The notes: generated from the sequence alone by a model not told the origin. Shown: positions 3,861 through 14,450, numbered from the stretch's first letter. The stretch is DNA of 64,000 bases from a virus (IMGVR_UViG_3300031992_002338); one strand, 5' to 3'. Numbers and translations: made by a program.

Positions 3861-4256
3861 ATTTTTTAACTTTTTTATTTCTTCTAACTTCTCCTTAATA
3901 AGTTTCCTCTGTAATCTATCTGCAATTATATCGCAATGGCATGGTAATGGTTTGCAAAAGCACCCTAACCATATTTCTTTACCATTTTTATAGTTTTCAT
4001 ATATTTTATCAAAGGCAGTTGTTAATTCTTCGTCAACACCATATGCCTTATCAAAATATTCCCCAAATGCTGCTATTGCCTCTTCTCTAGTTTTAAACGA
4101 TAAATTTGCTATACTAGTTTTCACACCATTGTGCGTGAATGGATTGCCTAAAGGATTATCATTCTGCTTTGTCTTGGGGTTTCTATGTCTTCCACAATAG
4201 TAATAGCATTCTTCATTAGACCTATCCTCATTGTGTATGTTAATTACGTGTATCAT
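3849..4256 (-). CDS. DUF4326-like protein
   Basis: Y.GR...NPLGNPF...REEAI..F...LGCFCKPLPCHCDII. Confidence 0.75.
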   Translation of the reverse strand: MIHVINIHNEDRSNEECYYYCGRHRNPKTKQNDNPLGNPFTHNGVKTSIANLSFKTREEAIAAFGEYFDKAYGVDEELTTAFDKIYENYKNGKEIWLGCFCKPLPCHCDIIADRLQRKLIKEKLEEIKKLKNAKS

Positions 4257-5592: not shown

Positions 5593-5653
5593 ATATATTA
5601 TAGTAGCTCTGGAGGGATTCGAACCCTACGAGCCCAGCTGGGCAGCAGATTTT

Positions 5654-6429
5654 CTTACCACTATTGTTTTTACACAATCCAACTCACTGAGTTGTTGTAG
5701 TCTGGACTATTTCATCACCATGCAAAAACTGTTTAGGTGTCTCGTATATAGTCTCTACGCCATTTATCAGTATAATACTGAACTTAGAGAGTCATCGCCA
5801 AAGAATGTGTCACCACATTCGAGGTTTCTGTTTGTTAGCGAGATTCTACGCCCCAATGATTGTCAGTCATTGTTTTCTCCTTTCGGAAAGGGCGCACTCT
5901 TATTTCGACCACGATAATTGTCTGTTTGAGCATGGCAATTAGGACAAAGTATCTCAATATTTTCAATTCTATTGTCTCTATTGTTACCATTTTTATGGTG
6001 AACTTCTAAAGGAATTTCTTTGCCATTCCACTCAGTTCTTCCACAGCACTCACACTTTTTTTCCTTCACACCTTGTTCAAATAATTTAAACTTTAATTTA
6101 TATGATTGATAGTTGGAATCTTCTACCAAAATTTCTTCTAAAGCTAATGGAGGATTTGGGTTAAATTTCAACCCAACATTCCATCCTTGCCCAGTGAAAT
6201 GACTAGTATCGATGTTATATTCTGCTATTGCGTTTTTAACAACCCTATAATTTCCACCTATCGGCTTAATGCCCAAATTCCTACACATTTGTGCAATACT
6301 CAGCGCGTTTTTAGCCGCTTGCTCATATTCTTCTTTACTTTTTTTCATAATGTATACCATTTAACAATAAATAGTATAAAAACTCAAAAAGTAAAAGGTG
6401 TTAGACAACTTTTTATCGCGTCTCACTGA
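5654..6429 (-). mobile_element. Group I self-splicing intron (776 nt) carrying an HNH gene
   Basis: Follows exon U and ends in G. P1 CUU/GAG, P3 TCTCG/CGAGA, P7 GACTA/TAGTC, R-like GTAGAGACTATA and S-like GAAATAGTCC. Confidence 0.88.
5863..6348 (-). CDS. Intron-encoded HNH homing endonuclease (alternative start 6360)
   Basis: CECCG...LEVHHKNGNNRDNRIENIEILCPNCH, with an N-terminal HTH-like region. Confidence 0.9.
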   Translation of the reverse strand: MKKSKEEYEQAAKNALSIAQMCRNLGIKPIGGNYRVVKNAIAEYNIDTSHFTGQGWNVGLKFNPNPPLALEEILVEDSNYQSYKLKFKLFEQGVKEKKCECCGRTEWNGKEIPLEVHHKNGNNRDNRIENIEILCPNCHAQTDNYRGRNKSAPFPKGENND

Positions 6430-6470
6430 AAGTCTACCGTGTCTACCTCTGCACCACAGAGCCATATTTG

Positions 6471-6554
6471 TACCCTCGGAGGGATTCGAACCCTCAATGC
6501 CCTTTAGGACTCTACATCCTTAGTGTAGCGTGTCTGCCGTTCCACCACGAAGGT
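6471..6554 (-). tRNA. tRNA-Leu(AAG)
   Basis: Acceptor ACCTTCG/CGAGGGT, anticodon arm CTACA-CTAAGGA-TGTAG, long variable arm, GGTTCGAATCCC. Confidence 0.88.
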
Positions 6555-13349: not shown

Positions 13350-14450
13350 ATGAAAACAAAAGATTTTATAAAAAAAGCTATAAAAATTCATGGTAATAGA
13401 TATGATTATTCAAAAGTAAATTATATTGATACAAACACCAAAGTTTGCATAATTTGTCCAGAGCATGGCGAATTTTGGCAAACCCCACATAATCATTTAC
13501 GTGGAAGAAAATGTAAAAAATGTTATTTTGATTCAGAAAAATTAAATACGATTAGTTTTATAGAAAAAGCAAAGAAAGTTCATGGGGATAAATATGACTA
13601 TTCAAAAGTAGAATATATTGATAGTAAAACTAAGGTATGTATAATATGTCCTAAACATGGAGAATTCTTACAGACACCACATAATCATCTTTCTTGTAAA
13701 GGATGTCCAAAATGTAGCGGAACAAAAAAATTAGACACTAATATTTTTATACAAAAAGCTAAAGAAATTCATGGTGATATATATGATTATTCAAAAGTAG
13801 AATATAAAGGGTCAAAAGAAAAAATATGTATAATATGTCCTAAACATGGAGAATTTTGGCAAACCCCAAATAACCACCTTTCTAATCAAGGATGTCCTAA
13901 ATGTAGCATTGACAATATAACAAATAAAAACAAGTTTACTACTGCTTTTTTCATTGAAAAATCGAAGAAAGTTCACGGTGATAAGTATAACTATTCGAAA
14001 GTAGAATACGTAAATTCAAAAACTAAAATTTGCATTATATGTCCTATACATGGAGAGTTTTTGCAAGCACCAAACAAACATCTTTTAGGGCAAGGATGCC
14101 CACTATGTAGTGAAAGTAAATTAGAAGAAGAGACTAGAATATTATTAGAAAATAATAAAATAAGATTCGAATATCAAAAAAGGTTTGATTGGCTAGGTAA
14201 AAAAAGTTTAGACTTCTATCTTCCAGATTATAATATTGCAATTGAATGCCAAGGTAAACAGCATTTTATTCCTAGTGATTTTTTTGGTGGAGAAAAAAGG
14301 TTATTAGAAACCAAAGCAAGGGATAAAGAAAAAGCCATCTTATGTAAAACTAACGATGTAAATCTAATATATTATAATTATAACGAAAATACGAGAATAT
14401 TAAAAAATAAATTGTATGATAAAATAAACAGAACAAGTACACGACCATAA
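13350..14450 (+). CDS. Free-standing homing endonuclease-like protein: four Zn-binding repeats plus a PD-(D/E)XK/Vsr-like domain
   Basis: Repeats FI.KAK.VHGDKYDYSKVEY...KVCIICP.HGEF.QTP..HL...GCPKC, and C-terminal LDFYLPDYNIAIECQGKQH. Confidence 0.85.
   Translation: MKTKDFIKKAIKIHGNRYDYSKVNYIDTNTKVCIICPEHGEFWQTPHNHLRGRKCKKCYFDSEKLNTISFIEKAKKVHGDKYDYSKVEYIDSKTKVCIICPKHGEFLQTPHNHLSCKGCPKCSGTKKLDTNIFIQKAKEIHGDIYDYSKVEYKGSKEKICIICPKHGEFWQTPNNHLSNQGCPKCSIDNITNKNKFTTAFFIEKSKKVHGDKYNYSKVEYVNSKTKICIICPIHGEFLQAPNKHLLGQGCPLCSESKLEEETRILLENNKIRFEYQKRFDWLGKKSLDFYLPDYNIAIECQGKQHFIPSDFFGGEKRLLETKARDKEKAILCKTNDVNLIYYNYNENTRILKNKLYDKINRTSTRP

Follow-up and report, generated by a model that had tools for sequence, protein, structure and literature searches.

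Group I introns with homing endonuclease genes are known from phages: they occur in td, nrdB and nrdD of T4, in the DNA polymerase genes of SPO1 and SP82, where the enzymes I-HmuI and I-HmuII are HNH proteins, and in Twort. Endonuclease genes are also known in tRNA introns, namely in the tRNA-fMet intron of Synechocystis, the enzyme of which, I-Ssp6803I, belongs to the PD-(D/E)XK type and not to the HNH class. Up to 2014, all phage introns had been found in protein-coding genes despite the many tRNA genes of phages (Hausner et al., 2014), an account with which an earlier note on the DNA studied here agrees in placing the characterised phage introns in protein genes. The first phage tRNA introns were reported in Lak megaphages and described as 'enigmatic'; Rfam was tested and no classification was given (Devoto et al., 2019, PMC6784885), and one Lak tRNA intron was proposed to encode a tRNA (PMC6784885). 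The bacterial tRNA-intron lineage has been reported as subgroup IC3; the setting of the classical cyanobacterial intron, 'Leu.3Ug', is written CUU/...g/AAAA, and introns over ~400 bp may hold genes, phages not being treated in that work (Williams, 2020). In the literature that we searched, the coverage of which is incomplete, phage tRNA genes were nowhere described as hosts of group I introns, whether these carried homing genes or not.

The split tRNA-Leu(UAA) gene

The window (the whole stretch of viral DNA that we analysed, 64,000 nucleotides) has a G+C content of 33% and uses the standard code, its 27 long ORFs containing terminal stops only. Genes for a baseplate wedge protein, a primase and an SbcC-like protein assign it to a large tailed phage, for which a gut origin is plausible. 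Within a cluster of tRNA genes on the minus strand, a tRNA-Leu(UAA) gene is interrupted by a long insert.

6642-6561, minus strand: tRNA-Leu(CAA), upstream neighbour in the cluster, a called tRNA gene
6554-6470, minus strand: tRNA-Leu(AAG), upstream neighbour in the cluster, a called tRNA gene
6430..6463, minus strand: 5' exon of tRNA-Leu(UAA), with the acceptor, the D arm, the 5' strand of the anticodon stem and C32 U33 U34
5654..6429, minus strand: intron, exactly 776 nt, from U6429 to omega-G 5654
5604..5653, minus strand: 3' exon of tRNA-Leu(UAA), with A35 A36 A37 A38, the 3' strand of the anticodon stem, the long variable arm, the T arm (one U.C mismatch), the acceptor and the discriminator A
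5592-5521, minus strand: tRNA-Gln(UUG), downstream neighbour, a called tRNA gene

The 5' half (6463-6430) reads ...GTAGACTT at its end; the 3' half (5653-5604) opens with AAAATCTGC and closes in the T arm and the acceptor strand. ARAGORN did not call the split gene, with introns switched off or on (introns up to 1200 nt allowed). All candidate junctions compatible with an anticodon stem of 5 bp and a loop of 7 nt were therefore spliced in silico and the products were submitted to ARAGORN. With U at position -1 and G at the intron end, a single solution was obtained, a tRNA-Leu(UAA) of 85 nt with a long variable arm, and the intron is thus delimited as 6429-5654. The -1 nucleotide is U6430, the last intron nucleotide is G5654 (omega-G), and the insertion point lies between U34 and A35 of the anticodon. 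The joined exons form a clean cloverleaf, the acceptor end of which (G1.U72) is the same as in the adjoining tRNA-Leu(CAA); the T stem of the mature tRNA contains the one mismatch listed above. The proposal that two tRNA halves 776 nt apart make up a complete tRNA-Leu(UAA), with the insert after U34, is thereby borne out, and so is its companion that the site is that of the cyanobacterial and plastid trnL(UAA) intron, the arrangement CUU/...g/AAAA matching Leu.3Ug (Williams, 2020). We also considered a 5' splice site that follows a fourth U and creates the anticodon UUA of an ochre suppressor; this junction was dropped because the intron would then terminate in A. Separately, the adjoining tRNA-Leu at 6470-6554 (minus strand) has the anticodon AAG (A34), which is unusual in bacteria-type tRNA sets.

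UUA is the commonest leucine codon in the window's long ORFs (34% of leucine codons), so the interrupted tRNA is not marginal. The suggestion that UUA decoding hinges on splicing holds for the phage's own tRNA supply and is overstated for decoding overall: the host presumably supplies its own tRNA-Leu(UAA), which limits the dependence to what the phage itself contributes.

Relatives of the insert and its catalytic core

When phage records were searched with distant blastn, only the 190 nt that follow the ORF of the insert gave matches, which were unannotated spacers in the crAss-like phage cr115_1 and in Prevotella Lak megaphages. Inspected by eye, the cr115_1 and Lak inserts are ORF-less, ~230-245 nt long and located in tRNA anticodon loops. 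A 19-base string common to the window, cr115_1 and Lak, GAAATAGTCCAGACTACAA, was present in at least 39 IMG/VR stretches; nearly all of those with complete flanks could be spliced to a tRNA-Leu(UAA), tRNA(CUA), tRNA-Arg(UCU), tRNA-Lys(UUU) or tRNA-Ile(UAU). Judged from these sequences, the recurrence of the core inside split viral tRNAs is more than chance. Introns in phage tRNA-Lys(UUU), tRNA-Ile(UAU) and tRNA-Arg(UCU) were seen in L014 (2479-2792, minus strand), L019, L023 and L007/L027/L036/L040 (L numbers denote the loci that we fetched). Some of the non-Leu copies hold ORFs elsewhere in the intron, the ORF of the L007 type being located upstream of P7 and not in P1.

An alignment of 16 distinct family members (A1) was used for structure prediction, and a covariance model (R1) was built from 16 phage cores only. 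In the window, the following helices were assigned.

5654..5845, minus strand: catalytic core, R1 match 5654-5845, 204 bits
5843-5839 with 5744-5740, minus strand: P3
5830-5829 with 5794-5793, minus strand: P4
5824-5823 with 5799-5798, minus strand: P5
5820-5814 with 5809-5803, minus strand: P5a, GUGA loop
5791-5790 with 5761-5760, minus strand: P6
5781-5776 with 5772-5767, minus strand: P6a
5753-5748 with 5710-5705, minus strand: P7
5739-5736 with 5719-5716, minus strand: P8
5701-5697 with 5661-5657, minus strand: P9.0-like pairing
5694-5689 with 5685-5680, minus strand: P9
5678-5674 with 5667-5663, minus strand: P9a

Applied unaided to A1, RNAalifold returned P3, P4, P5, P5a, P6a, P8, P9 and P9a; P6 and P7 were added by hand. 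Pairing was found in 99.3% of cells across the 16 relatives, compared with 35-46% when the 3' partners were slid by 1-3 columns. Compensatory changes occur in 25 of 47 pairs, and 0 of 500 shuffles reached any of these measures. The covarying helices are P3, P4, P5a, P6a, P8, P9 and P9a, and the compensatory changes across the family imply selection on the fold. P7 (GACUAU/AUAGUC), which forms the group I pseudoknot with P3, is invariant in this sample, as are P5 and P6, so that conservation alone speaks for those three. The order and nesting of the helices, with the P3-P7 pseudoknot, P4-P6, P8 and P9, are those of a group I core. Omega-G is present in 14 of the 16 aligned relatives, the other two (L006 and L015) having A. 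The window contains a single copy of the core, and its R1 score is the highest of all copies. By eye, A1 further reveals a P8 of the CCUAA/AUGG type, a short P5-P5a and a GAAA loop on P2a; the intron is a candidate for subgroup IC3.

The direct search with a group I covariance model gave a different result. Rfam Intron_gpI (RF00028) did not match the window, L001, L002 or L005 at the gathering score or at E <= 10. The Rfam group I seed is without bacterial sequences (Williams, 2020). In L005, the stretch from P8 to the 3' exon (3878-4004, minus strand) gave a sub-threshold match to Rfam LOOT RNA (RF03000; 22 bits, E 0.044), which probably reflects a shared CCUAAAC/GCAUGG receptor-like hairpin.

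A transitive comparison was made through bacterial genomes. We scanned 185,579 species genomes for GTAGAGACTA, followed after 25-55 bases by ATAGTCCAG, a string pair that we take to be common to the Azoarcus IC3 intron as well, and obtained at least 120 stretches. The phage-built model R1 gave 73 matches at E <= 0.01 in 80 of these at least 120 loci, with scores of up to 69 bits, part of which is built in because the loci had been picked by a 19-base pattern common to the phage core. With two exceptions, the matches cover the full model length. The two best align full-length, helix by helix, and such alignments are, as far as sequence comparison can tell, in excess of what the selection of loci builds in. 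At the R1 match sites in L102, L117, L107 and L121, Rfam Intron_gpI itself scored above gathering. Most of the bacterial introns that could be mapped interrupt tRNA-Leu(UAA) at the identical CUU|...G|AAAA site, are ORF-less and, among the best matches, measure ~195-240 nt; the best R1 matches place tRNA-Leu(UAA) introns in Bacteroidota, Alphaproteobacteria, Acidobacteriota and Clostridiales. Other mapped introns sit in Arg(UCU) and CAU-anticodon tRNAs.

With the direct Rfam test negative and the transitive test positive, the alignments place the insert in the classical lineage of bacterial tRNA introns. The earlier note had named P3, P7 and a terminal G, and all three are present in a core that folds with covariation across 16 relatives. 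The check with group I models that it had suggested was negative for Rfam Intron_gpI, which was silent on the window; its identification of a group I intron with an HNH gene in a phage tRNA-Leu(UAA) is upheld by the covariation together with the Rfam-positive bacterial introns that R1 recognises.

The guide sequence, the HNH gene and mobility

Upstream of the core, the intron comprises the P1 and P2 region and the HNH gene.

5863..6360, minus strand: HNH homing-endonuclease gene, 165 aa from ATG 6360 or 161 aa from ATG 6348
5900..6429, minus strand: predicted P1 loop (L1), from the 5' splice site to the guide, with a ~70-80 nt leader and most of the HNH gene
5897..5899, minus strand: most likely internal guide sequence, GAG, pairing with exon C32-U33-U34, placed by homology with ORF-less relatives
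5847..5896, minus strand: P2 domain, a three-way fold of P2, P2a and P2b
5896-5890 with 5853-5847, minus strand: P2
5889-5876, minus strand: P2a hairpin, GAAA loop
5872-5854, minus strand: P2b hairpin, the loop of which contains the ORF stop codon

The exon CUU has two potential GAG partners, a distal one at 5899-5897 and a proximal one at 6423-6421. In the ORF-less Leu relatives L005, L012 and L039, the CUU is followed after 10-40 nt by GAG-UGC, the GAG abutting P2, and GAGTGC is invariant directly before P2 in all relatives of the Leu/Lys type. The homologue of this stretch in the window, AAGAGTGCGCCC at 5901-5890, is found at the end of the HNH gene. Most likely, then, the guide is the GAG at 5899-5897, to judge from this homology, in which case the HNH gene occupies the P1 loop. 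The proximal triplet was rejected as P1 partner because L004, a relative with the same architecture as the window, is without a GAG near the 5' splice site and because every relative has GAGTGC before P2; it is best seen as a chance or competing pairing. The P1 pairing CUU/GAG that had been proposed thus stands, and the position of its GAG most likely moves from 6423-6421 to 5899-5897.

Across the relatives, the guide covaries with the exon, CUU-GAG being found in Leu and Lys copies and CUCU-GGAG in tRNA(CUA). P1 consists of 3-4 pairs only, with a wobble at the splice site (U34.G5899, that is U6430.G5899), and A5900 could add one pair with intron U6429. P10 was not visible in the window intron. 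The stretch from the guide to P3 has a minimum free energy of -19.7 kcal/mol (z -4.05), and the same three-way shape is seen in L004 and L005.

The HNH ORF is intact and ends with a TGA at 5865-5863. Its product carries a CxxC...HH...N...CxxCH pattern and matched HNH_3 (PF13392) with 27.1 bits, above the Pfam cutoff of 24.8, and phrog_10822 with E 3e-47; PF01844 scored 19.8 bits, under its cutoff of 21.4. A search of the PDB by sequence found no relative. The final ~13 codons of the gene overlap the guide sequence, P2, P2a and the 5' strand of P2b, so that the stop codon falls in the P2b loop. Both an intact HNH ORF 5' of the catalytic core and the overlap of its last codons with intron stems had been noted earlier, and both are confirmed. 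A single RNA molecule should consequently undergo either translation or splicing but not both. A second, unrelated HNH/homing-endonuclease gene (13350-14450, plus strand; phrog_559, E 1.5e-84) is located 7 kb off in the window, indicating that the phage carries several selfish nucleases.

Using tblastn, we found HNH homologues of 34-64% identity inside the tRNA-Leu introns of L004, L026, L035, L028, L013, L031 and L154. The closest is that of L154 (5867-6552, minus strand; 64% at the amino acid level), where the core scores 188 bits with R1. The tRNA-Leu(UAA) of L154 is on a 45.7-kb contig (CALAUA010000005.1) binned as a Bacteroidales MAG, possibly a prophage or phage DNA assigned to the wrong bin. 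DNA similarity of the window to all fetched loci is confined to 5603-6394, that is to the 3' exon and the intron, and the flanks share nothing; an end of similarity at the tRNA and intron borders would be expected of a mobile cassette. In two ORF-less tRNA-Leu(UAA) introns, those of L005 (3912-4181, minus strand) and L024 (~668-898), a remnant of the last HNH codons is retained before the guide, as expected if it is the footprint of endonuclease-gene loss. On these comparisons, the distribution is that of a homing cassette which is gained and lost repeatedly. Where the intron had been called mobile and homing-competent, mobility is supported by the presence of the cassettes in otherwise unrelated genomes with similarity stopping at the tRNA borders; homing competence stays a prediction.

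Searches for related alleles covered several data sets. An exact match to the spliced 18-mer was found in 16 other viral stretches, namely in uninterrupted UAA-anticodon tRNA genes of unrelated phages and in one or more sequences without tRNA character; none of these is closely related to the tRNA studied here. When 25 kb of the window was compared with 50,697 phage records by megablast, no match was obtained, and these collections yielded no close relative of the phage. A search with neighbouring proteins retrieved only a distant relative (40% at the amino acid level) with a syntenic tRNA cluster, which has neither a Leu(UAA) gene nor the intron.

Proposed mechanism, alternatives and known systems

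Taken together, these data argue that the insert is probably a working group I (IC3-like) ribozyme in tRNA-Leu(UAA) with an HNH homing gene in its P1 loop; splicing, nuclease activity, the target and the conflict between translation and splicing are predictions of this model. The tRNA cluster would be transcribed as a precursor in which the tRNA-Leu(UAA) is interrupted between U34 and A35 by the 776-nt ribozyme. The exon CUU and the guide GAG (5899-5897) would form the short P1 with its U.G wobble, and a free guanosine bound in P7 would attack after U6430. G5654, held near P7 by an ACUAC/GUGGU pairing, would then replace the guanosine, and the exons would be joined as ...GACUU-AAAAUC..., yielding a normal tRNA-Leu(UAA) that reads the commonest leucine codon of the phage. 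The target of the HNH product would be the intron-less tRNA-Leu(UAA) gene of a co-infecting phage, which it would cut or nick, and repair would copy the intron with the HNH gene into the cut allele. On a given RNA, the translating ribosome and the ribozyme fold would be mutually exclusive, completion of the ORF unfolding P1 and P2.

We wondered whether the ribozyme might be active and the HNH protein nevertheless not be the homing enzyme of this site, either because it has no activity or because it was once a free-standing nuclease that settled in the P1 loop and has its target elsewhere. This is the strongest of the alternatives and is unlikely rather than far-fetched. The Pfam scores are modest (27.1 and 19.8 bits), no solved relative was found by sequence, no intron-less allele of a sister phage was found that would show recent homing, and the ORF-less relatives tell us that the gene is often lost. 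However, the ORF is intact and keeps its CxxC...HH...N...CxxCH pattern, and homologues (34-64%) occupy the same position in other tRNA-Leu(UAA) introns of unrelated genomes, as persistent co-mobility of gene and intron predicts.

It is less likely still that the insert is a decaying, group I-derived relic that splices inefficiently, leaving this tRNA-Leu(UAA) copy effectively a pseudogene and the phage dependent on the host tRNA. All core helices are intact in the window copy, which has the top family-model score (204 bits), the exons still form a clean cloverleaf, the HNH ORF is uninterrupted, the compensatory changes in the family imply selection on the fold, and UUA is the phage's commonest leucine codon. 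These observations stand against the silence of the Rfam model, the very short P1, the T stem mismatch and the distant relative whose syntenic tRNA cluster does without any Leu(UAA). Protein-driven removal, either by RNase P/Z-type trimming with an RNA ligase or by an endonuclease/ligase pathway, as proposed for the 'enigmatic' Lak tRNA introns, would suit the missing Rfam match and the existence of other kinds of phage tRNA insert (Devoto et al., 2019), but is hardly credible: the insert has every group I helix, the P3-P7 pseudoknot and U-1/G-omega, its guide changes in step with the exon among the relatives, R1 connects it with Rfam-positive group I introns, and no tRNA-like fold was seen at its ends.

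Copies of the core also occur in tRNA(CUA) genes. Such genes are split in L001 (~2420-2760), which is the crAss-like phage cr115_1 (NC_055898), in L002 (~2426-2745), which is Prevotella phage Lak-B1 (MK250020), and in six IMG/VR contigs (L008, L017, L018, L020, L038 and L041). These copies insert between positions 35 and 36 (CUCU|...G|AAA), one position further 3' than the Leu copies, and the split tRNAs were missed by ARAGORN and Rfam. ORFs near several CUA copies lengthen greatly with TAG readthrough, from 236 to 2372 aa summed in L018; in the flank of L006, a copy with omega-A, the longest ORF grows from 332 to 1105 aa. The tRNA(CUA) introns of L006 (~784-994) and L015 (oriented 2148-2359) end in A (...GTAGTACA|AAC...), and either have an unusual 3' splice nucleotide or are inactive.

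Some recoded crAss-like phages have been reported without a detectable suppressor tRNA (PMC7886860, PMC12386605), and intron-split genes may be one candidate explanation for these 'missing' suppressors. We tentatively extend this, at somewhat less than even confidence, to the wider idea that the window element is active and belongs to a widespread family of homing group I introns, apparently undescribed, which is specialised on the anticodon loops of phage tRNAs (Leu-UAA, Lys-UUU, Ile-UAU, Arg-UCU) and also interrupts the amber-suppressor tRNA(CUA) in TAG-recoded phages of the crAss-like and Lak groups. If this were true, suppressor maturation and hence the switch of genetic code would need ribozyme splicing in crAss-like and Lak phages, and the suppressor would escape standard tRNA finders, a possible reason for recoded phages 'without' one. 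As ARAGORN and Rfam both miss the split genes, phage tRNA inventories, including the suppressor tRNAs of recoded gut phages, are likely under-counted.

Among the known systems, the classical tRNA-Leu(UAA) intron is similar in its identical site, U-1/G-omega, short P1, the same core helices and similar R and S strings, and its bacterial members are matched by the phage-built model R1. Classical introns are ~200-300 nt long, have no ORF and reside in cellular or plastid genomes, whereas the window intron is in a phage, has a 161-aa HNH gene in its P1 loop and lacks an Rfam match. The Azoarcus intron presumably shares GUAGAGACUA before P3', the receptor-like P8 (CCUAA../..AUGG), AUAGUCCAG in P7' and a GAAA loop on P2; it differs in its tRNA, its loop position, the lack of an ORF and its high G+C. 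The introns in protein genes of phages resemble the window intron in being phage-borne and self-splicing, in their endonuclease gene in a peripheral loop and in their homing lifestyle, splicing and homing being predicted for the window, and the SPO1-type enzymes are of the same HNH class; unlike the window intron, whose host gene is a tRNA, they interrupt translated genes. The tRNA-fMet intron of Synechocystis PCC 6803, which encodes I-Ssp6803I according to a study known to us through a later citation (Bonocora and Shub, 2001, cited in PMC3984707), belongs to a cellular genome. The Lak introns are also in phage tRNA genes, and Lak-B1 holds a relative of the window intron; this copy splits tRNA(CUA) and is not the single baboon-genome intron (tRNA-Tyr) tabled in PMC6784885.

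The classical tRNA-Leu site and HNH homing genes are thus each known, and their combination in phage tRNAs appears undescribed in the literature searched. By its sequence relatives, the window element is one member of a large family and not unique. As the HNH end overlaps the guide and P2, translation and splicing may be inherently at odds in this intron, and their conflict could be studied within a host gene that never undergoes translation itself. Compared with the protein-gene introns of phages, these data indicate that phage tRNA genes are also targets of group I introns, at the ancient tRNA-Leu site of cyanobacteria and plastids and with a homing gene attached, which offers a natural, testable system for how tRNA-Leu introns spread between genomes, an old question for the plastid and cyanobacterial intron.
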